NCBI GenBank assembly: GCA_903827265.1
Contig: CAIKHN010000024.1
Coordinates: 3,332-67,331 of the forward strand
Length of the DNA stretch: 64,000 bases
Direction: 5' to 3'
Origin: Candidatus Uhrbacteria bacterium
Lineage (GTDB): Bacteria; Patescibacteriota; Patescibacteriia; UBA9934
The notes beneath the pieces were generated by a model. The model made no database searches and was not told the DNA's origin. It saw only the letters and a program-made list of their open reading frames with translations. Position numbers and translations under genes: made by a program. This document shows, one piece after another, positions 10,634 to 55,078 of this stretch (position 1 is its first letter; every line of letters begins with the position of its first letter).

Positions 10634-11520
10634 GGGGTCAGGTCTTGAATCTATGCATTTTTAAAACTCTAAAAACAGTTGAATAATGCAAGTGAAGATG
10701 TCGTGCGACAACTGATTGACTATATCCGCATTGCTCAACAGCAAAACGTATAACGCTATTTCTCTCGTCTCTCTTCAAGCGCCGAGAAAACATATCTTCT
10801 AAATTCGGCCGCCCGATCATTCGTTGCTCTCTTGGGATTTCTTCACCAATATCGTCGACTTGCCAATTTTCCGCTTCGAAAATAAATTGTTCAGAACCAA
10901 GAATTTGATGTCTTGCCTCCTTGAAAGGCGAGAGCGGCGGTATCTTTTCAAGCACAAAATCCAGATATCGTTTCTGAGCCAACATTTGATTCGTCGAAAA
11001 CCGAATAAGAATATCGCTGATTGTGAGAAAATTGCGTTTTCTCGCCAATCCGGCAGTCTGACGAAAGCTACTCCAATCGTACGCAGCCGGTTCTTTTACA
11101 ATCCCTGCTCGAACAGGATTCAGCACGATATACCGTGCAACAGTGACAAGATAAAAAATATTCTCTATAAGAAAGGCCTTGAATCTTCCTTGAAACAAAT
11201 GGCCTACGCGCCGATATCGTTCGTTGATTTTTTGCGCATATGTTCCGTTAAGCTGCCGCATACCCTCCGAAAGATTTCCATCAGGTGTTTCAATGAGCAA
11301 ATGATAATGATTCCCCATCAAACAATATGCATGACAAATCCAATGATGAGTATGAATCGTTCTATCAAGGATTCTTAAAAATAAGCGTCTGTCTGCGTCA
11401 CAAAAATATATGTCCTTTTTCTCGTTTCCACGAACCGTTATGTGATATGTAGCTCCCGGGAATGCTATTCGTAATGGTCGAGACATAATAAAAAATGCAT
11501 AAATTCAAGACCTGACCCCT
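10634..11520 (-). mobile_element. IS200/IS605-superfamily or RAYT-like element carrying a single HUH (Y1) transposase gene, flanked by inverted repeats
   Basis: A 17-bp perfect inverted repeat ggggtcaggtcttgaat at 10634-10650 matches its reverse complement at 11504-11520. The repeat extends to about 29 bp with one mismatch (…ctatgcattttt / aaaaatgcataaatt…), and a single transposase ORF sits between the two ends. Confidence 0.6.
10638..11486 (-). CDS. HUH-family Y1 transposase (IS200-like / REP-associated tyrosine transposase-like) with C-terminal HTH extension
   Basis: HuH motif GNHYHLLIETP, a conserved ARYIVLNPVRAGIV block and catalytic-Tyr region. The C-terminal roughly 100 aa is HTH-like (FAVEQCGYSQSVVARHLHLHYSTVFRVLK). 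Confidence 0.75.
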   Translation of the reverse strand: MSRPLRIAFPGATYHITVRGNEKKDIYFCDADRRLFLRILDRTIHTHHWICHAYCLMGNHYHLLIETPDGNLSEGMRQLNGTYAQKINERYRRVGHLFQGRFKAFLIENIFYLVTVARYIVLNPVRAGIVKEPAAYDWSSFRQTAGLARKRNFLTISDILIRFSTNQMLAQKRYLDFVLEKIPPLSPFKEARHQILGSEQFIFEAENWQVDDIGEEIPREQRMIGRPNLEDMFSRRLKRDERNSVIRFAVEQCGYSQSVVARHLHLHYSTVFRVLKMHRFKT

Positions 11521-24347: not shown

Positions 24348-24875
24348 TTACGCTGTTTTCTTTTCCTTCACTGCACCAAGCACATTGACCAAACCACGGA
24401 GGTTGCCAGCGAGAACGTTGACGAATCCGGTTGGCGTTGCGTTGAGTGTACGAACGAGCATTCCAAGGAGTTGCTCCTTGCTTGGCAAGTCGGCGACACG
24501 CTTCACATCGGCCGTACCAATGAGACAGTTTTCCAAGACACCGGCAACCAAGGAACCGATTTCTTTGTCTTTCAAGAAATCTTTGAGCACCTTTGCTGCG
24601 GTCACTTCGTCGCCATAACTCACGGCAGTGAGAATAGAACCCTGTAACGCGTCGGGCACCACACCTTCCACACCTGCTTCCTTTGCTGCAAGCGTCAGTA
24701 ACGTTTTCTTCGAGATGAAGATATCAACGTTCTGTGCTCGAGCCTTGGCGCGCAATGCGTCGGCATGGTTCATGGTAAATCCGGACACGGAGACAAAGGC
24801 TGCGCCTTTCATCCGCTTAAACTGATCCGCGATTCCCGCCACGATGTCGCGTTTTTCTGAACGAGACTTTGGCAT
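24348..24875 (-). CDS. rplJ: 50S ribosomal protein L10
   Basis: 175-aa L10-like sequence immediately upstream of rplL. Confidence 0.9.
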
Positions 24876-25030
24876 AGTGAACCGTTAAATGTAAAACGAC
24901 CCCAGAAGGGCCGCAGAAATTCCTTCGAAGCCCCAAAGGAGCAAAGAAGGAGAGATTCTCGACAGGACTTACACCGAGGCTATATCGGCAACCTGTTGTC
25001 TGCGGATCTCGAGGACGGGAAAAGAGTATC
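24876..25030 (-). promoter_or_regulatory. rplJ 5' leader (possible L10 autoregulatory leader)
   Basis: Roughly 150-200 nt of non-coding sequence upstream of rplJ on its strand. Assignment is by position and established knowledge of L10(L12)4 autoregulation only; no structure was verified. Confidence 0.25.
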
Positions 25031-25035
25031 ACACG

Positions 25036-25064
25036 TTGACGATAAGTCAAATATTCGCTAAGGT
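25036..25064 (+). promoter_or_regulatory. promoter/operator module copy 1 (TTGAC-N5-GTCAA palindrome overlapping the -35)
   Basis: ttgacgataagtcaaatattcgctaaggt sits about 45 nt upstream of the 25110 gene and is a near-duplicate of the module at 25946. Confidence 0.4.
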
Positions 25065-25109
25065 TCGCGCCGACAGGAATTCACTTCCCTCCTGTTTCAA
25101 AGGATACTC

Positions 25110-25889
25110 GTGACCCAGACTCCCCCAAGCATGACGCCGGAAGCTGTCCTCGAGCTCTTCAAGTTGGCGATCGCGGAAATGAAGACCTACTACAAGGCGA
25201 TGCAGGCGAAGAACTACCGCCTCGTGGACTACGACTGCTTCACCGCCAACGCCGAGGCGCTCGACACGCTGTTTCAGTCGACACCTTTCATTCAGTTCCC
25301 GGTGCAAGCGGTACCCGCTGACCTAAGGTTGAGGTACCGCGCCGTGGATTGGCCGATCTGGTTCGCCTACAAGGCGGTCGAGGCCATCGGCTACGCGGCA
25401 CGGACGAACGAACGCGAGGGCACCACTTTCGCGGACGCGGTCCAGCCGCTTTGGAAGATCATCGAATGGGAGAAGGCGAAACCGATTCTCGCATCTCAAG
25501 ATCCAGATCAAGAATGGAGCCTGCGCCTCCAAGATCGATTCGCCATAGAGCTCCAACGCAACGGATTCTACGGCGAGTGGATTGTGGAGCTTTCGCTTCG
25601 CGAGAAACCGCTCCTGTGGATGAAGGCTCTGGAAACGGGCCCGCGGGAATTCGAGTTCCGTCTCGACGATACGCTCGAGCTCGTCGATGAAAAGGACTGC
25701 GTCTTCGTCGACTCCACGAGCACGTGGGTCCTCGTTTCGGAAGAGCGTGCGCATCGATGGGAACGAATCGGCAGGCTGCAAGCGGAGCGCGCAAGGGCCG
25801 AGGCCAACTTTCGTTCGCTCGACGCCGAAATCAATGGAGAACTCGGCGTGATCCGCTACCAGGACACGCGGGGCAAGAACGCCACGTAG
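25110..25889 (+). CDS. hypothetical protein, first gene of a G+C-rich islet
   Basis: 259-aa ORF with GTG start and AGGA RBS. Third codon positions are strongly G/C-biased, unlike flanking genes. Confidence 0.5.
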   Translation: MTQTPPSMTPEAVLELFKLAIAEMKTYYKAMQAKNYRLVDYDCFTANAEALDTLFQSTPFIQFPVQAVPADLRLRYRAVDWPIWFAYKAVEAIGYAARTNEREGTTFADAVQPLWKIIEWEKAKPILASQDPDQEWSLRLQDRFAIELQRNGFYGEWIVELSLREKPLLWMKALETGPREFEFRLDDTLELVDEKDCVFVDSTSTWVLVSEERAHRWERIGRLQAERARAEANFRSLDAEINGELGVIRYQDTRGKNAT

Positions 25890-25902
25890 GCACAGAACAC
25901 GA

Positions 25903-25946
25903 CGCCGCGACCACCCTCACAGGTGGCCGCGGCGGTTCTTTTTTAT
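25903..25946 (+). terminator. intrinsic terminator
   Basis: 13-bp stem cgccgcgaccacc/ggtggccgcggcg with one mismatch, followed by ttctttttt. Confidence 0.65.
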
Positions 25947-25975
25947 TGACGAAAAGTCAAAATTTTGCTATATTT
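25946..25975 (+). promoter_or_regulatory. promoter/operator module copy 2 (TTGACG, 17 nt, TATATT; TTGAC-N5-GTCAA palindrome)
   Basis: ttgacgaaaagtcaaaattttgctatattt: -35 TTGACG, 17-nt spacer, -10 TATATT. The downstream gene has GGAGG and a GTG start. Confidence 0.5.
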
Positions 25976-26024
25976 ATTGGTCACTGCAACGAAAGATCAA
26001 TTCACATTCTGTCTTGGAGGCACC

Positions 26025-26672
26025 GTGTCCCACAAGAACAAACCCCTGGACCTCAACACCCGAAACCTGTTCCCAACATCGCTCCTTGAGGCCCAACGCC
26101 TCATCGGCGAACTCATCGGCGAGAATGCTCGGCTCAAAGATCTCGCCTACACCGACGAGCTCACGCATCTCGTGAACCGTCGTCCGCTGATGGCCCAGAT
26201 GGACCGCGTCTTCCACGGCCGAAACGGCGCAGAGGAACGACGTCGAGCCCGCCGTGGCACCGAGAGCATTGCTGTCATGGCGATCGATCTCGAAGGGTTC
26301 AAGCAGGTCAACGACCGGTCGAGTCACGCGGAAGGCGATCGTGCGCTCATCCACACCGCGCAAGTCCTTCGCAGGGCAATCCGCGAAGACGACATCGCGG
26401 CAAGGGTGGGCGGCGACGAGTTCCACGTCAGCCTCTACAACACCACGCTCGAAGGCGCGAACCTCGCGATCGAGCGGATTCTCAAGGGAGTCCGGTCGTT
26501 CGAAAGCCTCGTCGGAAAGCACGTCCTCGACGTGCGGATCGGGTGCGTGTTCTGGGAGCGGGAGATGGGCGATGCACAATACGCCAAGCTCTTCGCTATC
26601 GCCGAACACAACGAGCGGACGCTCAAGACCGAAAAGCGCGTCGGGTCGCTCGTGACCCTGTTCAAACCGTGA
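26025..26672 (+). CDS. GGDEF-domain protein (diguanylate cyclase), stand-alone
   Basis: TDELTHLVNRRPL entry to the GGDEF fold, AIDLEGFKQVND, the RVGGDEF active-site motif and a DRALIH block. GTG start at 26025 with GGAGG RBS; the ORF-track start at 25965 is rejected. Confidence 0.8.
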   Translation: MSHKNKPLDLNTRNLFPTSLLEAQRLIGELIGENARLKDLAYTDELTHLVNRRPLMAQMDRVFHGRNGAEERRRARRGTESIAVMAIDLEGFKQVNDRSSHAEGDRALIHTAQVLRRAIREDDIAARVGGDEFHVSLYNTTLEGANLAIERILKGVRSFESLVGKHVLDVRIGCVFWEREMGDAQYAKLFAIAEHNERTLKTEKRVGSLVTLFKP

Positions 26673-26696
26673 CATCAGCGTTACGCACGCCCACGG

Positions 26697-26729
26697 CCGG
26701 CCCTTCGCAAGAAGGGTCGGTTTTCTTTG
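26697..26729 (+). terminator. intrinsic terminator
   Basis: Stem ccggcccttc/gaagggtcgg (9 of 10 bp) with loop gcaa, followed by ttttcttt. Confidence 0.55.
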
Positions 26730-26755
26730 ACAAAACACCAATTTTCTGGTATAGT
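26727..26755 (+). promoter_or_regulatory. near-consensus sigma70 promoter (TTGACA, 17 nt, TATAGT)
   Basis: TTGACA at 26727-26732, 17-nt spacer, TATAGT at 26750-26755. Confidence 0.55.
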
Positions 26756-26851
26756 ATTGCGTCAGAGAGTCCTATCCTCTCTGCCGCAACACTCCCCCCG
26801 GCCATCAGGCCATCCCACCAAGTACCGCAGAAGCCCACGGAGCCATACACC

Positions 26852-27433
26852 ATGGCCAAAAAGCAGTTCGAAGTCCCGGAATACGAAAACGCATGCACCG
26901 TAAACCCACGGCGGAGCCGTCGGCCGAAGACCGACACTGAACCTGGCGTCAAAAACATCCTGTTTCCCTGGTTTACCACGGGACAGGAACTGACCCTCGT
27001 CGGCTGCGACAACGGTGAACTGGAGATCGGTGGCGATAACGACACGGAGCTCTACGACTTCAGCTGGAAGGACAGCGAAGACGTCATCCAAGGTGAACAC
27101 CTGCTGGAGATGTATGAGTTCGTTTCCGACAGCGCTGACGACATCGACAACGAGCTGGCGCCTGCGCCGCTCGAACTCGACGTCCTCGACCGGTTCTACG
27201 CCGGTACCGCCGACACCTTCGACAGCATCGTTGCCATGAGCCGGATCGCCGGCCTGGACATCGGCGATGTCGTCGATCAGCTGCTCGCGAAGGGCGTCGA
27301 CCTCCTCCGGCCGATGGTCGAGGATGAGGAAGACGACAGCGACCCGATCACCGCCGTGGATTTCCTGACCAACCGCGAGCTCCGCGGCGTCAGCAGCCTC
27401 CCCGGCCGGCGATTCATCTACGCCAACGCGTGA
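26852..27433 (+). CDS. highly acidic hypothetical protein (193 aa)
   Basis: ATG at 26852, in frame with the longer track ORF 26543..27433. The translation is very rich in D/E (…VEDEEDDSDPITAVDF…). No family recognised. Confidence 0.5.
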   Translation: MAKKQFEVPEYENACTVNPRRSRRPKTDTEPGVKNILFPWFTTGQELTLVGCDNGELEIGGDNDTELYDFSWKDSEDVIQGEHLLEMYEFVSDSADDIDNELAPAPLELDVLDRFYAGTADTFDSIVAMSRIAGLDIGDVVDQLLAKGVDLLRPMVEDEEDDSDPITAVDFLTNRELRGVSSLPGRRFIYANA

Positions 27434-27559
27434 CAACGAGGGCGGTGCAGACATCATGCACCGCCCAGCCCCCAGAGTTTCCGAGTACACTCGGAGATTG
27501 CGGGGGCGAACAAGTACTTGAACGCCAACACCAACCCTTTCCGAGCAATCGGAGGAAAA

Positions 27560-27739
27560 ATGGATCAAAGAGACTACGATAAGATGGTGCTCCGGGGGAT
27601 GACCGAGGAAACTGCGCGAGACATCGCGCTTCACGATGAAGCCTGGAGGCGCCATCGAGAGACGAGGGATCGGCGACAGCCGAGCACCGAGCAAGATCTC
27701 GCACGAGCGCTCGGCTTCGATTCGAACGGAACGTACTAA
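27560..27739 (+). CDS. small hypothetical protein (59 aa)
   Basis: ATG preceded by GGAGGaaaa, with G+C-rich codon usage like the rest of the islet. Confidence 0.3.
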   Translation: MDQRDYDKMVLRGMTEETARDIALHDEAWRRHRETRDRRQPSTEQDLARALGFDSNGTY

Positions 27740-27821
27740 GCGCACGAGGAACGAGAGACGTCATCTCGTTCCGCCCGCAGAGTTCATGATCGGATTCGAT
27801 CGTGGGTTGTGCGAGAAAAGC

Positions 27822-27855
27822 AAAACCGCCACCGAGAATCTCGGTGGCGGTTTTG
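27822..27855. terminator. bidirectional intrinsic terminator
   Basis: aaaaccgccaccga-gaatc-tcggtggcggtttt: 10-bp GC-rich stem flanked by A and T runs, lying between convergent genes. Confidence 0.7.
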
Positions 27856-27859
27856 TATA

Positions 27860-30199
27860 TTATGAGAGAATGTCGAGAATGTCTGTTACTGACGCTTCAA
27901 CGGCGTCCGGATCAAAGTCACTCGTGCTGTTAATATCGTCTCCAAAGTGATAGTTGCTGAAGAACGCATCACTAATGTCGTCGATCTGTTTGTTCCATGT
28001 GCTCCCCCAAATACTCTTTGCAACATCTTCGCTTGCAACCGCACGAAGCTCTCCGTCGGTTCCCACGGCGTACACCGTATTGACCGTCAGGAATTTTACC
28101 ATGCGTGTTCCAGGATGATACGTCACGTTTTTTCCAAGAGTCACTGACGCCATGAATTCGTCCGTAACGACAATCACGTCGTCGAAATTCTCGTACCACG
28201 TGAAGAACACTTTTTCATTTGGGAACGCATGACGCTTTCCGTCGTAGTAATACACGGCATGACATGGGTCGCTCACGTCGGCAACACTTCCACATGCCAT
28301 TTTAATTAGCGTGTTCACCGCTGCTTCAGGAGCAGCATCACGCTCCTCGGTTGTTGTCGTTGCTGCGCTAATGGTGATTGTTACCGATGAACCGCGTGTT
28401 GCGTTTCCCGAAGAGTCAACACAATATGCATTTGCAATCGCGACTCCAGCAGTTGTAAATGTTTGTGTCAGCGAAGCGACGCCGCTTCCAATCGTCATGG
28501 CGCCTTTTGAAACACCGTCCACGTATAACGTACATGACGAAACCGCCACGTTATCTGAAACGTTCGCGTGCAAACTTACCGGAACACCAACGGTAGCATT
28601 TGTTGGAATGAGTCCGGTGACCGTCGGCATCATTACGTCAGTTGTTGTTGTCGACGCGGCACTTACCACAATAGTTACCGTTGAACCTGTTCCCGTATTT
28701 CCTGCAGCATCAACACACGTCACGTATGCAGAATAACTTCCAGCCGATGTAAATGTTCCAGACACTGACGCGGTGCCAGCACTTAACGTCATTGACGACG
28801 TTTTGCTGTCGACGTGCTCTGTGCAGCTCACAACACCAACTGCGTCACTATATGTTGCGGTAAACGTCTTTGCGACGTTCACCGTTGCGGTTAGTGGCGT
28901 AAGTGCGCCAACCGTTGGCGCAGTGGTGTCAGCAGATGACGTTGCGCTCACCGTAAATGAAACCGATGTTTCATCACCCTCATTTGATGCCGGATCAATC
29001 GCGCGGATTGTTGCCGTGTGGCTTCCGACAGAAAGCGCCGTTGCCCAGCTGTATGAATTCACCGCACCAATATCAGTCCACGTTCCACTTGCATCCATTT
29101 CCATTTCGTATGACGCAACATATGTTTCATCGTCCGTCGCATCGTTCCATTTAAACTCTGGCGTCGCGTCTGTTGTCGATGTCTCGCCGCTTGAAAGCGC
29201 AAAGTCACTCACTGCGTTTGGTCCGTACGCGTCATACACGGAGATTGTTCCAGATTCACCCACGGCAACACGTTTTCCAATAGCGAATTGGGTTACGCCG
29301 TTCATAATCTTTGATGCGCCCATCCACTCCGCGGTCCATACGGTTCCGTTGCTTGAAGAAGTTACCACTGCGCCAAGATTTCCCGAGACTAAACACAACG
29401 TCGCCGACGAACAGCTCACGTCTTGAACGGTCTCTGCCGCATCAAAATCCGAAAGAGTGACAGAGCTAAAGGTGCTTCCGTTTGTTGTTTTTACCAGAGT
29501 ACGATTCTCTCCGCCAAAATATGCGACTGTTGCAGAAAAAGCATCAACAGCATGCAGCGTCTCTGACGTTCCCGTCGTTAATGCTGTCCACGATGTTCCA
29601 CCATTTGTGGTCTTGTATGCCGCACCATACTTTCCAACGATGTACACCACCGTTGAGGAGTACGCGTCGAGGCCATTCACATCGAAGCTCCCAATGCCGG
29701 TATTGATACGCGTCCACGTCGTCCCACTGTCGACTGTTTTATAAATTGATCCGTCTTGTCCACCAACAAACATGACCGATGCAGAAACCGCGGTCGCACC
29801 ATACAAATCCTCAGTCGTAACGCCGGTAATACTTGTCCACGTCGCACCACCGTCGGCGCTCACGATAATTGTTCCGGCTTTTCCCACGGCAATCGCGACG
29901 GACGTGCCGTACATATCGACGTGATTCAGCGTCTCTGTTGTTCCAGATGTTGCGGTATTCCACGTTTTCCCGTCGGCCGCATAGAGCACTGTTCCGTTAT
30001 CACCAACCGCGACACACGCCACAGCATGTCCGCAGTCGACATCACGAAGCTCTGTGGTTGTTGGAGAATCGTAAAGCACCCACGCCGCAGCATGGACATT
30101 CACTGCCCACCCTATTGCGGACACCGCACACAATGCAGTCGCACCCAAACGTTTCAAACCGAAAAAGCGTTTAGCAATCATATATTTTGAGTATATCAT
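27860..30199 (-). CDS. large cell-surface protein with Ycf48/BNR-like beta-propeller repeats followed by Ig-like domains
   Basis: Signal peptide, then repeated DGGATW / DSGTTW / NGGTSW Asp-box-like motifs, then Thr/Ser-rich beta domains with conserved Cys pairs (…VSCTEHVD…, …SSCTLYVD…, …AYCVDSSG…). Confidence 0.65.
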   Translation of the reverse strand: MIYSKYMIAKRFFGLKRLGATALCAVSAIGWAVNVHAAAWVLYDSPTTTELRDVDCGHAVACVAVGDNGTVLYAADGKTWNTATSGTTETLNHVDMYGTSVAIAVGKAGTIIVSADGGATWTSITGVTTEDLYGATAVSASVMFVGGQDGSIYKTVDSGTTWTRINTGIGSFDVNGLDAYSSTVVYIVGKYGAAYKTTNGGTSWTALTTGTSETLHAVDAFSATVAYFGGENRTLVKTTNGSTFSSVTLSDFDAAETVQDVSCSSATLCLVSGNLGAVVTSSSNGTVWTAEWMGASKIMNGVTQFAIGKRVAVGESGTISVYDAYGPNAVSDFALSSGETSTTDATPEFKWNDATDDETYVASYEMEMDASGTWTDIGAVNSYSWATALSVGSHTATIRAIDPASNEGDETSVSFTVSATSSADTTAPTVGALTPLTATVNVAKTFTATYSDAVGVVSCTEHVDSKTSSMTLSAGTASVSGTFTSAGSYSAYVTCVDAAGNTGTGSTVTIVVSAASTTTTDVMMPTVTGLIPTNATVGVPVSLHANVSDNVAVSSCTLYVDGVSKGAMTIGSGVASLTQTFTTAGVAIANAYCVDSSGNATRGSSVTITISAATTTTEERDAAPEAAVNTLIKMACGSVADVSDPCHAVYYYDGKRHAFPNEKVFFTWYENFDDVIVVTDEFMASVTLGKNVTYHPGTRMVKFLTVNTVYAVGTDGELRAVASEDVAKSIWGSTWNKQIDDISDAFFSNYHFGDDINSTSDFDPDAVEASVTDILDILS

Positions 30200-32073: not shown

Positions 32074-32091
32074 AAAGATTACATTGACATC

Positions 32092-32226
32092 GAGAGCTGG
32101 TGACTCGGGTACATGTTTCTTCACTCGCCGCAACGATCGTCACGCCCGACGTCTCGCTCTGCTCGACTGTGGCTGGACGACTGTGCGGTTCGTTGCGAAA
32201 CATGCACCCTCATCACTGGCGCTCTC
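32092..32226. repeat. palindromic intergenic repeat, family A copy 1 (REPIN/MITE-like, about 135 nt)
   Basis: Arms gagagc-tgg-gtga-ctc-gggtacatgtttc … gaaacatgcaccc-tca-tcac-tggc-gctctc. It is homologous in inverted orientation to the copies at 34648 and 39652. Confidence 0.75.
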
Positions 32227-32229
32227 AAT

Positions 32230-33087
32230 TTATTTCTTCTCAAGAACAAGGATGCGTTTTATACCGTGAACAGGATCGCCGTCGTTCCAATCACCAAGCG
32301 CGTTCATAACAACGGCGTATTTGTACGTGTAATTCTCTCCACGTCGTGTACCCGGATCATTCGCAATAAAATTCTCGGTGTCATACCCGCGAATAACAAA
32401 GAGGTGATACAGCGGACCGTCGCCGCTATAAAATGGGTTTCCCAATTCCTGACCTGCAGCAAGAGCAACGACCGGTGTTCCGGCATTGATGTACGCCTTT
32501 ATTTGATCGACGGTTGGATTGTCGACGACGGTTACAGTCATTGTTCCGAAATACGACTCGGCAAATTCCCCAAGTTCTGCAGCGGTCAAACTCGGTTTAA
32601 GACCCGCTTTCGTTTCTTTATCTACCATGTCGAGCAACACCAAATCGGCAGTTTTTGGATCGATCACGCCACTCACGCCAGCGTAATATTGTGCAACCAT
32701 GTACACCGAGGCTTCCTCGCATGTGTCCTCGTGAATAACGTCCCAATTTGCGTACGGTGCTTGCGATGTAAATGGTACGGCGAGATTTTTTGATGTTGGG
32801 GGCGGTGTCTGTATAACCTCCAACGCAACTTTTGCGATAGCGGAAAGATCAGGTGACGGAGGCGTCGCTGTTACCGGTTCCGGCGTCACTTCCTGTTGCT
32901 TCACTAATTCGTTATACGTCACCGATGGAACGGTCGACGTTGGCACAACGGGGCCGCCGTGAAGACGCTCGTACGCGTACAGCCCAACACTGACAACCGC
33001 GACAACACCGAACAGATAGCCGTACCACGGCTTCCATGGCCGCTGCTTTCCGTCGAATGGATTTTTGAGTAATCGATTCATGATCAT
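32230..33087 (-). CDS. C39-like cysteine peptidase domain protein, membrane-anchored
   Basis: N-terminal TM helix, Pro/Thr-rich linker, then a block VPFTSQAPYANWDV…CEEASVYMV resembling the Peptidase_C39_2 catalytic Cys region. Confidence 0.45.
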   Translation of the reverse strand: MIMNRLLKNPFDGKQRPWKPWYGYLFGVVAVVSVGLYAYERLHGGPVVPTSTVPSVTYNELVKQQEVTPEPVTATPPSPDLSAIAKVALEVIQTPPPTSKNLAVPFTSQAPYANWDVIHEDTCEEASVYMVAQYYAGVSGVIDPKTADLVLLDMVDKETKAGLKPSLTAAELGEFAESYFGTMTVTVVDNPTVDQIKAYINAGTPVVALAAGQELGNPFYSGDGPLYHLFVIRGYDTENFIANDPGTRRGENYTYKYAVVMNALGDWNDGDPVHGIKRILVLEKK

Positions 33088-33095
33088 AAAGGTTT

Positions 33096-33221
33096 GAGAA
33101 CGCTCTAATTTTAGGCTAGTTTCGATGAACGTCGAGCAAAGTTTCCGAGGTGTACTTCTCGGTACATCGAGGAAATTTGCGATGATGTGAGTCGAAAATA
33201 GACAAAATTAGAGCGTTCTCT
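33096..33221. repeat. palindromic repeat, family B copy 1 (126 nt, perfect 17-bp terminal inverted repeats)
   Basis: Left end gagaacgctctaatttt and right end aaaattagagcgttctc are exact reverse complements. The interior is homologous to 52733-52850. Confidence 0.7.
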
Positions 33222-34596: not shown

Positions 34597-34647
34597 AAAA
34601 ACAGTGTACAGGACTATGACGCGAAGGTGAATGCACACCAGGTATCG

Positions 34648-34781
34648 GGAGCGCCAGTGACAAGGGTGCATGTTTCGCAACGAGCAATGCACCCATCCAG
34701 CCGCAGTTGAGCAAAGCGAAACGTTGCGGCGTGATGGTGTTCACGCACAGTGAAGAAACATGTACCCGAGTCACAAGCTCC
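34648..34781. repeat. family A repeat copy 2
   Basis: Nested stems ggagc/gctcc, gtgac/gtcac and gggtgcatgtttc/gaaacatgtaccc (with G·U), plus an inner stem gccgcag…ttgcggc. Confidence 0.75.
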
Positions 34782-52709: not shown

Positions 52710-52732
52710 ATGAATATATCGAACACAGAGCA

Positions 52733-52850
52733 TTTGAGACCAGTTTCGATGAAGGTCGAGGAAATCTCGCGAGGCGTACTTCTCGGTACGTTGAGCGAAT
52801 TTCCGATGACCTGAATCGAAAATGGGCCAAATGAATGTGTTCGTCCTTTT
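52733..52850. repeat. family B repeat copy 2 (degenerate; lacks the left terminal repeat)
   Basis: cagtttcgatgaaggtcgaggaaatctcgcgaggcgtacttctcggtacgttgagcgaatttccgatgacctgaatcgaaaatgggc aligns with the interior of copy 1. It lies 24-140 nt upstream of the rpsB start. Confidence 0.55.
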
Positions 52851-53230
52851 TAACCTCGGCCGTCGTATCGTGGAGCCCTTTTCTGCGAAGGGAGGAATCC
52901 AATCGATGATGTATCGACAACCTGTGAGATTTGCGTAAATAAGTGCCCGCAGAAGACGGCAGAATAGTACTAAAGTCCGCAAAATTTTGCAAATGAAACG
53001 CGAAAGCCGCCGGTTGCGTCCCGGCGGCCCACTTTCGGTCAGCAGCACGAATCATCACCGTAATCTCGCCAGAAGCTAGGCGCTGACCTTTCACGCTCCT
53101 TGCGCCTCTGCTTCACCACCGGAGCGACCCATTCCTTGAAGTTCAGAATGTACGTAAGGAAGCTCCTCACGATACGCAGATTTCCATCGCGCATGAAGTC
53201 TTCCTCATCGAGGACGTAGTACTCGCGCCA

Positions 53231-53446
53231 CTATCCATCAACGCGGGAAATCGCCTCGAATACTTCAATGGAATCGGCGAGTACACTATTTAACCCGAAG
53301 CGGCGTCCACCGCGGTTCGCGACCGAAGTCCCCAGTGGTGCCGATTGAAGGGACCGGTACTCGGGTGAACCGAGCAACTCCTCGTCGGTATACCGACGGT
53401 CATTGCGGAAGGGGACGTCGGAGACTTCAGGATCGTTCGACGACAT
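53231..53446 (-). CDS. hypothetical small protein (G+C-rich islet)
   Basis: 71-aa ORF downstream of the receiver gene with GC3-biased codons. Confidence 0.25.
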   Translation of the reverse strand: MSSNDPEVSDVPFRNDRRYTDEELLGSPEYRSLQSAPLGTSVANRGGRRFGLNSVLADSIEVFEAISRVDG

Positions 53447-53582
53447 GGGTCACCATGGTGAGAGAGGCGGTGTTCTGAAGCGAAGGATTTCGCCGGAACT
53501 GTGAAATATTCTCAGATATTCGCCAAAAAGGCAAGACCGCCGAGTGTCGTACTCGGCGGCCCCGTTGCCTGGACACTCTTTT

Positions 53583-54029
53583 TCACAGCTCCCCCGTCCG
53601 CGACTGTGGCTTCGGTGGAGGCTGATGCTCACGCTCGAGCTGATCGAGGAGATCGCTGAGCCAGCGTACCGTCCGCGGCATAGCAACGACGAATCCTCCG
53701 GAATCGCTGACGAGCTGACGCAGCCAGTCCCGGTCCGTGTACATGAGGTACACGAACGGGACATTGACCACGTTCATGTGAATCCCTCGTTGCTTGTGGA
53801 ACTCCGCACCCAGTAGTCCATGACACCGATGCTCGACCGGACCAGTGCGATCGTCCGTCACGACAAGCGCGAGCTGATCCCCGAGCTTGGCGAACTGCGT
53901 AATTGCGTCTTCGAAGTCGCCCGTCGGTCGCACGTCCCAGCCCACAGCTAGAAGCGCTTCCGCGAAAAGCAGTCGCGTTGCCTGGTCTTCGATGTAGAGC
54001 AAGACTCCTTTCCGATTCCGAGCAGCCAT
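53583..54029 (-). CDS. stand-alone CheY-like receiver-domain protein
   Basis: Start ATG 54029 with a GGAGGTG RBS. VLLYIEDQ…LVVTDDR fits the receiver acidic pocket and phospho-acceptor Asp pattern. No output domain. Confidence 0.5.
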   Translation of the reverse strand: MAARNRKGVLLYIEDQATRLLFAEALLAVGWDVRPTGDFEDAITQFAKLGDQLALVVTDDRTGPVEHRCHGLLGAEFHKQRGIHMNVVNVPFVYLMYTDRDWLRQLVSDSGGFVVAMPRTVRWLSDLLDQLEREHQPPPKPQSRTGEL

Positions 54030-54079
54030 GTTCGCACCTCCAAAAATACTGTTACACGACAAAAGCGCTAATGCAAGCC

Positions 54080-55078
54080 TCAGCGAATGAACATGGCGTC
54101 GCCAAAGGAGAAGAAACGATATCGACAATCGACAGCCTCTTGGTACGCAGCAAGAACGTTTTCGCGGCCGGCAAAGGCGGAAACAAGCATGAGGAGCGTC
54201 GATTTTGGGAGATGGAAATTCGTGACGAGACCATCAACGACTTTGAAATCGAATCCCGGCGTGATGAACATGTTTATTTCGCCGGAGTAGGATTTAAGCT
54301 CGCCGATCGTCGCAAAAACGCCCTCAAGAACGCGAACGGTCGTTGTTCCAACGGCAATCACGCGTCGGCCTTCGGACTTTGCTGATCGAATTCGCTGTGC
54401 GGTCGGCTCATCGATCTCCACAAACTCGGCGTGCATCACGTGGTCCTCGATGTGATCGGTCTGTACTGGACGAAACGTGCCGATGCCAACATGAAGTGTG
54501 ACTTCTTCGATCTGCACGCCTTTTGCTCGTGCTCGATCGATGAGTTCGGGAGTGAAGTGAAGCCCGGCGGTTGGCGCAGCAACAGATCCGGTCGACTTCG
54601 CATAAACGGTTTGGTAGCGATCGGGATCGGCGAGCTCAGTGGTGACGTACGGTGGAGTTGGTACCGATCCTGCAGATTCGCAGAACGCGAACATCTCAAT
54701 CGCCGTCATCGAAGTTTTTAGCGTCACGATCCCGTCTTCCGTCTTTGAGACGACCTCGAGATCGCCGATTCTGAAACCGATCCCCGCTTTTCGTCCTGGC
54801 TTCACCAGAGCGTCGATCTCCCCATCGCGAACCTTGAGAACAAACACTTCAAAGCCGTCGATTTGAAGGCGGGCTTTAAATACCTTCGAAACATTAAACA
54901 CAAGAACATCGCCCGCGTTCAGCTCGTCGAGAATTTCGGAGAACCGATCGCGATGTTGAATTTCGCCAGTCGTTCGATCGAGCACAAGGAGTCTCGAAGA
55001 ATCCCGCGGTTCGATAGGAACCTGGGCGATCAGCTCCTCTGGAAGATTGTATGAAAAATCGGTGACGGGCGTTAGCAT
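54080..55078 (-). CDS. queA: S-adenosylmethionine:tRNA ribosyltransferase-isomerase
   Basis: QueA blocks (…LPEELIAQVP…RDSSRLLVLDR…, …TVGTTTVRVLE…). Start taken at MLTPVTD (55078). Confidence 0.85.
   Translation of the reverse strand: MLTPVTDFSYNLPEELIAQVPIEPRDSSRLLVLDRTTGEIQHRDRFSEILDELNAGDVLVFNVSKVFKARLQIDGFEVFVLKVRDGEIDALVKPGRKAGIGFRIGDLEVVSKTEDGIVTLKTSMTAIEMFAFCESAGSVPTPPYVTTELADPDRYQTVYAKSTGSVAAPTAGLHFTPELIDRARAKGVQIEEVTLHVGIGTFRPVQTDHIEDHVMHAEFVEIDEPTAQRIRSAKSEGRRVIAVGTTTVRVLEGVFATIGELKSYSGEINMFITPGFDFKVVDGLVTNFHLPKSTLLMLVSAFAGRENVLAAYQEAVDCRYRFFSFGDAMFIR

Follow-up and report, generated by a model that had tools for sequence, protein, structure and literature searches.

Integron arrays and clusters of attC sites lacking integron-integrases (CALINs) are built of small, unrelated and mostly promoterless open reading frames (ORFs), which lie in one orientation under an upstream promoter. 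An imperfect-palindrome element follows each ORF, content and order vary, and the composition of the cargo is unlike that of the host. Structured palindromes between operon genes are also known from repetitive extragenic palindromes (REPs) and bacterial interspersed mosaic elements (BIMEs) with their REP-associated tyrosine transposases (RAYTs); REPs are dispersed, occur in many copies and typically flank the RAYT gene. Diguanylate cyclases of the SiaD type combine a short helical stalk with a GGDEF domain carrying an active site (A-site) and an inhibitory site (I-site), without a sensor domain, and SiaD itself is activated by a small protein, SiaC, that binds its stalk (PMC8457831). Here we compare with these systems a GC-rich islet of four genes (g1 to g4, Table 1) at positions 24876-27859 of a 64,000-nucleotide stretch of a Candidatus Uhrbacteria contig (CAIKHN010000024.1, assembly GCA_903827265.1), hereafter called the window. 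With a probability of roughly 60%, we consider this islet to be a long-resident, hypervariable accessory locus of a groundwater Patescibacteria clade, fixed between the leader of rplJ and a convergent gene for a surface protein with BNR and Ig-like repeats (BNR/Ig gene).

Relatives of the locus were obtained by exact-protein look-ups of L10, L12 and the members of the L10 90% cluster, since a contig scan with L10 gave only relatives of at most 40% identity, of no use for synteny. These relatives, designated by L and a number, are from metagenomes of groundwater, that of Hainich for example. L086, L088, L096, L100, L102 and L103/L104 all have a GC-rich islet where the rplJ leader ends and the convergent BNR/Ig gene has not yet begun; these islets measured 1.8-3.9 kb where wholly on the contig and had a GC content of 0.575-0.612, against an average of 0.50-0.53 for the loci. 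Core flanks were 80-86% identical in nucleotide sequence, both between relatives and window and among the relatives themselves. In L001, L084 and L085, short contigs from other samples, we found g1 (71% amino acid (aa) identity), the GGDEF gene (about 52%) and the start of g3 in unchanged order, with the promoter and terminator sequences between the three genes almost unchanged. g1 was restricted to the window lineage and the L001/L084 lineage. In the outgroup L101 (core identity about 75%), a holin gene is followed by 340 bp and then rplJ, with neither islet nor surface-protein gene. The surface protein of the relatives was 48-63% identical in amino acids to that of the window, 773-1058 aa long and variable in its number of Ig-like repeats; its gene and the islet may form one accessory block of 5-7 kb.

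A first-pass annotation, made from the sequence alone, had read the islet as horizontally acquired modular cargo sitting where rplA and rplK would usually precede rplJ. The position argument failed: rplJ-rplL stood apart from rplKA and rpoB(C) in all relatives including L101 (rplK/rplA and rpoB are absent from the window), and since rplKA is detached from rplJL even where there is no islet, the islet displaced nothing. As to horizontal acquisition, the atypical composition, the modular orphan-like cargo and the accessory nature of the region (absent from L101) stood, and recent insertion did not: the same genes, position and composition largely recurred in relatives, g1, g2 and the start of g3 in L001/L084/L085 and anchored islets in six lineages. 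A foreign islet recently acquired upstream of rplJ and not yet ameliorated would account for the strong deviation in GC and in GC at third codon positions (GC3), the orphan cargo, the lack of the block in L101 and the presence of g1 in two lineages only. Atypical composition is indeed a mark of recent islands; absence from close relatives, a mobility gene, a tRNA and direct repeats, the other marks, were not found. The islet contains no mobility gene, integrase or tRNA (the sole tRNA of the window lies at 41696), a repeat search found no repeats flanking it, and searches of phage, plasmid and viral collections by DNA and by protein revealed no donor. Moreover, the same anchor gene and regulatory sequences recur in at least six lineages whose core differs by 14-20%, the synonymous divergence (dS) of the GGDEF gene equals that of core genes, and the composition stays high despite synonymous saturation. 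Recent acquisition is thus very improbable, and for g2-g4 it is already largely refuted.

The deviation in composition itself was clear. The GC content of the islet was 0.585, against 0.508 across the whole window; in 500-bp sliding windows it was 0.57-0.63 over positions 25000-27750 and 0.44-0.53 on either side. GC3 reached 0.765 in g1, 0.782 in g2, 0.804 in g3 and 0.650 in g4, compared with a mean of 0.502 (standard deviation 0.048, maximum 0.618) for the 49 other ORFs of the window. This bore out the shift that the first-pass annotation had placed at about 25.05-27.85 kb. GC at second codon positions (GC2) of the islet genes was ordinary (0.38-0.45), and ordinary GC2 with raised GC3 is the expectation for genuine genes on the plus strand. 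In every lineage the islet genes had a GC3 of 0.65-0.88, with synonymous sites saturated. Under two-state decay toward the genomic GC3 of 0.50, at 0.5-0.73 substitutions for each synonymous site and lineage, the 0.78 of today would need an ancestral GC3 above 1; hence the GC-richness is not a passive relic. Within the limits of so simple a model and of saturated distances, GC would either be maintained in place, GC-biased gene conversion being the obvious candidate, or alleles would be re-imported from a GC-rich pool. GC-richness would then be a stable property of the locus and not a fading foreign mark.

The inventory of the first-pass annotation (an unknown 259-aa protein, a sensor-less GGDEF cyclase, an acidic 193-aa protein and a 59-aa protein) proved right as gene models. 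All antisense ORFs of the islet sit in the codon-aligned antisense (shadow) frame. Such frames are open because antisense stops need TTA, CTA or TCA codons in the sense strand, which GC3-rich genes avoid. In addition, every independent signal lay on the plus strand: the GGDEF domain, promoters, ribosome-binding sites (RBSs), terminators, the pattern of GC1>GC2<GC3 over the codon positions and distant homologues of g1. The dismissal of the antisense ORFs as artefacts is therefore supported. Public gene calls nevertheless picked antisense ORFs in most assemblies (for example L003, L087, L096, L097, L098 and L100). For this reason an exact look-up of the g1 protein failed, protein databases lack most of the true islet proteins and homology searches find too few of them.

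The choice of gene callers, together with the fragmentation of some assemblies at the islet, could also be taken to mean that the islet is an artefact, either a chimera or a locus whose true genes are antisense as publicly annotated. However, an independent assembly has a 450-kb scaffold whose interior matches the window at 99.995% identity over 20.5 kb, g4 and L10 were both present on contigs of up to 618 kb, and the same architecture was independently assembled in many samples and lineages. The chimera against which the first-pass annotation had cautioned is excluded for practical purposes, and with the plus-strand signals and the shadow frame set out above, an artefact of either kind is hardly credible. 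Some assemblies do break inside the islet and islet genes are also found on contigs of 1-3.5 kb, which suggests strain heterogeneity.

The cargo other than the cyclase was orphan-like in the homology check. g1, g3 and g4 had zero matches in Pfam, PADLOC, PHROGs and NCBIfam, and the cassette proteins of relatives that were scanned had zero in Pfam, PADLOC and PHROGs. Word-indexed protein searches matched g3 to nothing except itself, gave one homologue for g1, and for g2 returned one protein at 52% and the remainder at 49% or less. A full HMMER search with a g1 profile found just 3 relatives in 1.84 billion representative proteins, none of them informative. AlphaFold2 models were poor for both g1 (2-sequence alignment, pLDDT 40.5) and g3 (single sequence, pLDDT 34.2).

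g2 consists of a coiled-coil or helical stalk of about 40 aa and a GGDEF domain, with no sensor domain. It scored 93.3 bits against PF00990 (cut-off 23.8) and 97.2 bits against TIGR00254 (cut-off 37.4). The motif DxLT, the residues D88 (metal), N96 (guanine) and G104-D105, and the motifs RxxD and GGDEF did not vary across 7 positional orthologues, and solved cyclases align with them. Similarly, the I-site is intact (REDD-IAARV-GGDEF): R120 and D123 are invariant and RxxD lies five residues before GGDEF. g2 is predicted to synthesise cyclic di-guanosine monophosphate (c-di-GMP). The closest solved structure was SiaD (7E6G, E = 9.6e-18), with which g2 shares the short helical stalk, the GGDEF domain with A-site and I-site and the lack of a sensor domain. 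SiaD is switched on by its small partner at the stalk, and in the islet the small protein next to the cyclase varies along with the cyclase allele. Unlike in SiaD, however, the match covers the stalk end and the catalytic domain only, the stalk of g2 is much shorter and the partner is a candidate. Against the SiaD equivalog NF038266, g2 scored 99.2 bits (cut-off 290), and no homologues of SiaA, SiaB or SiaC were found in the locus. The relation is thus one of analogy and not of membership; by that analogy, a neighbouring partner protein may control g2 as SiaC does SiaD.

The cyclase diverged far more than its surroundings. g2 orthologues were 33-55% identical between most lineages, and in the comparison with L086/L088 the GGDEF proteins were 38-45% identical, against 76-100% (mostly at least 85%) for the flanking proteins. 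By Nei-Gojobori estimates, the ratio of nonsynonymous to synonymous divergence (dN/dS) of g2 was 0.33-0.74 with a dS of 0.98-1.46, compared with a dN/dS of 0.02-0.12 and a dS of about 1.0-1.9 (lower for rplJ and rplL) in a core set of eight genes. For g1, dN/dS was 0.54 against L001. The surface of g2 thus changes about ten times faster than the neighbouring genes while its catalytic residues stay. Since its dS lies in the saturated range of the core, g2 has been resident since the lineages split or was exchanged only within the clade. The GGDEF protein of L096 was 77-80% identical to those of L102 and L103, though core identity was the usual 81%, a pattern that points to allele exchange across conserved flanks.

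Downstream of the cyclase terminator lies an operon under a P3-type promoter, whose first gene, g3 in the window, differs strongly by lineage. A Pro/Arg-rich N-terminal motif with an acidic region behind it is common to all versions, which otherwise resemble one another weakly and as mosaics; in g3 the short basic motif NPRRSRRPK precedes a strongly acidic body. g3 shows weak mosaic similarity to the first operon genes of L093, L100 and L088. The type of the first gene tracks the allele group of the cyclase, the groups being window/L084/L100, L096/L102 and L088. One to four small ORFs follow the first gene, and a module of about 80 nt lies between consecutive ORFs and after the last. In the window, the operon organisation is suggested by the surroundings of g4: a promoter scan found no convincing promoter for it, a hairpin module and a strong RBS lying upstream instead, and the hairpin 3' of g3 has no T-run. 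g4 is therefore most likely co-transcribed with g3. Its 5' untranslated region (UTR) resembles that of an unrelated cassette in L088.

Promoters and terminators were more conserved among relatives than coding sequences. Promoters orthologous to P2 (TTGACGAAA...TTTTGCTATACTTT) were found in all relatives. P3 is conserved in L084/L085, with similar promoters (TTGACAAA...TTTTCTGCTA) in L096 and L100, and the terminator after g1 is conserved in L001, L084 and L085. The first-pass annotation had given every gene its own near-consensus promoter and its own intrinsic terminator. For promoters, this held for P2 and P3 and not for g4 or for P1, which has a consensus -35 but a weak -10 (TAAGGT) and was unreported by the consensus scan. 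As to terminators, hairpins with a T-run do follow g1 and g2; g3 has none, and the array ends in a shared bidirectional terminator. So g1 and g2 would be self-contained units and g3-g4 an operon. In this, g1 and g2 are like phage morons, each with a sigma-70-type promoter before it, an intrinsic terminator behind it and a composition unlike that of its neighbours. Unlike morons, they lie on the chromosome, without prophage context or phage homologue, in a locus conserved across species-level lineages.

Two leaders deserve mention beside these promoters. The rplJ leader (24876-25030, minus strand) is about 97% identical to that of L001 and alignable in L086, L088, L096, L100, L102 and L101. It matched no Rfam family, the L10 leader included, at gathering threshold or at E up to 10, and may be a lineage-specific L10 autoregulatory leader. 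The probable rplJ promoter, read from a -35 TTGACT on the minus strand, stands with its -35 back to back with that of P1, which creates the palindrome TTGAC-N5-GTCAA. We considered this palindrome, present at P1 and P2, as an operator; it was not enriched in the window, and is better explained, on its sequence, as the -35 hexamers of P1 and of the divergent rplJ promoter standing back to back, presumably duplicated at P2. A long 5' UTR (90-150 nt) with hairpins precedes the first operon gene. This UTR is shared in conserved form by the window and L084, and by L086 and L088 as a second pair, and may act as a regulatory leader.

The junction module is made, in this order, of an ACGAGG-like stretch, a GC-rich hairpin H1 whose sequence varies per copy, a linker of 0-2 nt and a second hairpin H2 with a conserved sequence (CCCGCAGAGTTCATGATC-loop-GATCGTGGNNTRTGCGGG). 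Eight islets yielded 20 clear copies, every one of which folds as two hairpins, with a mean z of -5.8 relative to dinucleotide shuffles. In the alignment of H2 over 19 copies, 92.9% of cells pair and 7 of the 18 pairs were changed on both sides; these values were not attained by any of 500 shuffles, and in slid controls pairing was 25-40%. The diverged first copy of the window folds at -51.4 kcal/mol (z = -10): its H2 stem has been rewritten yet still pairs, with compensatory changes in both hairpins. In the terminal copy, the 17-mer is unique in the window, and orthologous terminal copies occur in L086, L088, L096, L100 and L102. Hits of the covariance model were confined to islets and absent elsewhere in the 64-kb window, with 51-71 bits in sense and at most 29 in antisense. 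An exact-pattern scan of metagenomes returned 4 loci, all of this locus type, and the same scan of a viral collection returned none. This double-hairpin repeat is previously undescribed. The modules, the 5' UTR of g3 and the rplJ leader belong to no Rfam family, c-di-GMP riboswitches included: one tRNA was the sole gathering-level hit in the window, and raising E to 10 for the islets of the window, L088 and L086 added only sub-threshold chance hits.

Of the 20 copies, 18 had a sense fold more stable than the antisense fold (Wilcoxon p = 0.002); G·U pairs made up about 10% of all pairs (55 of 537). Because the fold lies in the sense strand, the module most likely acts in mRNA, where it would be a structure between cistrons that serves stability, processing or read-through. 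As a lead only, the paired stem-loops between cistrons, together with the arginine-rich N-terminus of the first operon protein, recall HK022 put, which has two adjacent stem-loops, and lambda nut/N, in which a hairpin is joined with an arginine-rich peptide; unlike these, the module has no sequence or Rfam similarity to them. In the L102 islet (2186-2466), two modules lie about 230 nt apart with no filtered ORF above 30 aa between them; this gap could be an 'empty' cassette or hold a very small ORF.

The ORFs between the modules turn over rapidly. By ORF clustering, F1 (about 158 aa) occurs in L088, L096 and L102, and F3 (137 aa, with a transmembrane (TM) helix) in L096 and L102. Cassette order is F1-M-F3 in L096 and F3-M-M-F1 in L102 (M, module), and F1 has other neighbours in L088. 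The singletons are g4 of the window, a 95-aa ORF of L088 and the ORFs of L093, L094 and L100. One 3' half (GGCCTRTGCGGGCAA) is common to the internal modules, all terminal modules carry GRGTTGTGCGAGWRAA beside the terminator, and the sequence immediately 3' of H2 is cassette-specific. These patterns would be expected of exchange at or near H2, and homologous recombination between modules could produce them too.

Hence we weighed an integron-like, site-specific cassette system, in which H2, perhaps with H1, would be a folded single-strand site for a recombinase encoded elsewhere, circular cassettes would enter and leave at the terminal module and P3 would express the captured genes. Much of the anatomy is what such a system would produce. 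The ORFs are unrelated, promoterless, of one orientation and each flanked by one imperfect-palindrome element; close relatives differ in how many there are (1-4) and in how they are ordered, the F1/F3 swap being one case; the distinct internal and terminal 3' halves are as expected of a crossover inside H2, directly 3' of which the sequence is cassette-specific. The cargo also differs in composition from the host, assemblies of some samples break within the islet, and a gene for a hairpin-acting Y1 transposase (RAYT) lies 14 kb off. On the other side, neither the 64-kb window nor the flanks of any relative (6-10 kb, where the contig allows) encode a tyrosine or serine recombinase, the Y1 RAYT being the sole exception. 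A search by regular expression for the attC R''/R' consensus gave 0 matches on either strand of the 8 islets, where chance alone would give 2.3. It is the sense (top) strand that folds, with many G·U pairs, whereas attC sites act via the bottom strand, and the module is limited to one locus and one clade. Set against what defines integrons and CALINs, the islet has the one-orientation promoterless array that varies between relatives, and it lacks the integrase (which a CALIN need not have) and the attC cores. It further differs from them in having no nearby IntI, no R''/R' consensus (RYYYAAC...GTTRRRY), junctions of two hairpins of which one is conserved in sequence, a sense strand that folds, 1-4 cassettes, and a single site in one clade. 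Taken together, this makes site-specific integration a doubtful explanation, and still the main mechanistic rival.

The structured palindromes between operon genes, with a RAYT gene in the window (10638-11486), invite comparison with REP/BIME elements. Unlike these, the islet module occurs in the window only at 27434-27822, not beside the RAYT gene, is about 80 nt long and forms two hairpins; it is thus neither dispersed nor in many copies nor flanking the RAYT gene, as REPs would be.

Table 1. Positions of the islet features and of its two anchor genes (numbering of the window; of the relatives' loci in the last row)
Feature	Position	Strand	Remarks
rplJ (ribosomal protein L10), left anchor	24348..24875	-	PF00466, E = 6.4e-17; identical protein on 18 contigs
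rplJ leader and probable rplJ promoter	24876..25050	-	conserved in all relatives including the islet-free outgroup
P1, putative g1 promoter	25036..25064	+	TTGACG, 17 nt, TAAGGT; conserved in L001
g1, 259-aa orphan protein	25110..25889	+	GC3 0.765; alternative ATG start at 25131
Intrinsic terminator after g1	25904..25947	+	GCCGCGACCACC / GGTGGCCGCGGC then T-run; scan reports part
P2, promoter of the GGDEF gene	25946..25974	+	TTGACG, 17 nt, TATATT, TG extension; 10/12 match
g2, stand-alone diguanylate cyclase, 215 aa	26025..26672	+	PF00990, E = 1.8e-26; no sensor domain
Intrinsic terminator after g2	26695..26728	+	12-pair stem then TTTTCTTT; conserved in L084, L086, L088
P3, promoter of the g3-g4 operon	26727..26755	+	TTGACA, 17 nt, TATAGT, TG extension; 11/12 match
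5' UTR of g3, about 90 nt, two small hairpins	26762..26851	+	conserved in L084; no Rfam match
g3, 193-aa protein, first gene of the cassette operon	26852..27433	+	pI 4.10, 42 D+E
Junction module copy 1 (diverged)	27434..27513	+	H1 27440-27466, H2 27469-27506; R1 covariance model 50.9 bits, E = 4.6e-10
g4, 59-aa orphan cassette ORF	27560..27739	+	RBS GGAGG; exact protein on 15 contigs
Junction module copy 2 (terminal)	27743..27822	+	H1 27748-27772, H2 27774-27815; CCCGCAGAGTTCATGATC...GATCGTGGGTTGTGCGAG; R1 62.4 bits, E = 8e-13
Bidirectional intrinsic terminator	27821..27855	.	16-pair stem; common to the cassette operon and the convergent surface-protein gene; conserved in relatives
BNR/Ig-like surface protein, 779 aa, right anchor, convergent	27860..30199	-	PSII_BNR + Big_13
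Surface-protein counterparts	L086 4700-7654; L088 3704-6880		

Other features of the window were noted. The RAYT gene (minus strand) encodes a 282-aa REP-associated Y1 (IS200-like) transposase with a C-terminal helix-turn-helix (NF047646, 81.7 bits, cut-off 80; PF01797, E = 3.6e-12). It has the lowest GC in the window (0.41, GC3 0.36), is the only recombinase-like gene in the 64 kb and is probably mobile or foreign. Intergenic repeats about 110-150 nt long, resembling MITEs or REPINs and some of them inverted, fall into two families; they were found at 33108-33218 and 52732-52842, and at 32084-32236, 34644-34780 and 39643-39797. In L086, L088 and L092, the rplJ leader carries an inserted copy (97%) of the first family directly beside the islet. 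We considered these repeats as kin of the junction module and rejected this, there being no sequence similarity. A second, milder patch of elevated GC (0.56-0.61) lies at 53000-54000 between rpsB and queA, with two small ORFs without family match, both on the minus strand: 53583-54128 (181 aa, GC3 0.64) and 53231-53446 (71 aa, GC3 0.62). The ORF list gives rpsB, queA and prfA N-terminal 'extensions', which come from over-extended ORFs and are not features. Finally, LexA, a MazG-like pyrophosphohydrolase and a Y-family polymerase (IMS) form a compact SOS-type cluster at 38090-41181 in this reduced genome.

What the islet does can be approached from its cassettes and neighbours. Because the surface protein is hypervariable and, like the islet, absent from L101, and because several cassettes carry a lipobox (L094) or TM helices (F3 and an L093 cassette), our preferred guess is a role at the cell surface or in host contact, and we infer a functional link to the adjacent surface protein. 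The main functional alternative is anti-phage defence or counter-defence, in which the nucleotide signal of the cyclase would be coupled to variable effectors, sensors or DNA-mimic inhibitors in an arms race that would account for rapid evolution and for the turnover of cassettes. This would agree with the high dN/dS alongside unchanged catalytic residues, with the hypervariable content of a fixed hotspot and with the orphan-like cargo, as well as with the very acidic g3 (pI 4.1), DNA mimics being very acidic. However, ten islet proteins compared with PADLOC-DB 2.0 gave no match save one at chance level (E = 0.025), and links in PHROGs were limited to generic GGDEF families. Moreover, the cyclase is a canonical GGDEF enzyme with an I-site and not of the CD-NTase or mCpol type, no effector domain is recognisable, and the several envelope-like cassettes fit a cell-surface role beside a variable adhesin-like gene. 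We therefore hold a defence role to be unlikely.

For the long-resident accessory locus that we favour, the anatomy, synteny, substitution rates, module structure and differences in cassette order observed here would fall into three layers. The first would be the stalk-and-GGDEF cyclase with its own promoter and terminator, which keeps its catalytic and product-inhibition residues as the rest changes fast. The second would be the P3 operon, with a basic-then-acidic first gene that tracks the cyclase type and 1-4 unrelated, module-bounded ORFs behind it. The third would be the orphan g1 of the window lineage, inserted with a terminator of its own between cyclase and rplJ promoter; its promoter would have been brought along or duplicated. 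Content would change by two routes: exchange of whole alleles among relatives across the conserved flanks, and rearrangement of cassettes at the repeated modules, which offer about 50-80 nt of homology.

Several points weigh against this reading. The co-variation of cyclase and first gene rests on three allele groups, and the evidence for an RNA role of the module, which we read from sequence, consists of the strand asymmetry and the G·U pairs. With dS saturated, vertical descent and exchange within the clade are not cleanly separable; with L101 as the sole islet-free outgroup, gain and loss are indistinguishable. No cargo protein has an assigned function, and the structure models of g1 and g3 are unusable. 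Finally, unrelated ORFs bounded by modules are more naturally explained by dedicated recombination than by homologous exchange alone. One may entertain, as an improbable but consequential alternative, that the H1/H2 double hairpin marks a new cassette system of the candidate phyla radiation (CPR), independent of integron integrases and attC sites, which would capture and shuffle small orphan genes and express them behind a rapidly co-evolving cyclase-partner pair. If this were true, the locus would be GC-rich as a recombination hot spot, through GC-biased gene conversion, or through a GC-rich shared cassette pool. A literature search found no paper linking integrons or c-di-GMP cyclases to such a Patescibacteria locus.

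Patescibacteria have tiny genomes and are thought to be poor in accessory loci; their variable regions likely matter for host attachment and for surviving phage attack. The islet offers an alignable example of rapid flux in such a genome, with a fixed site, a conserved regulatory scaffold, replaceable cargo and a structured repeat at every junction. Gene calls on the wrong strand make its proteins look more orphan than they are. It also illustrates that atypical GC need not equal recent transfer, and the locus may serve as a natural test of GC-biased gene conversion or of a cassette pool held in common.

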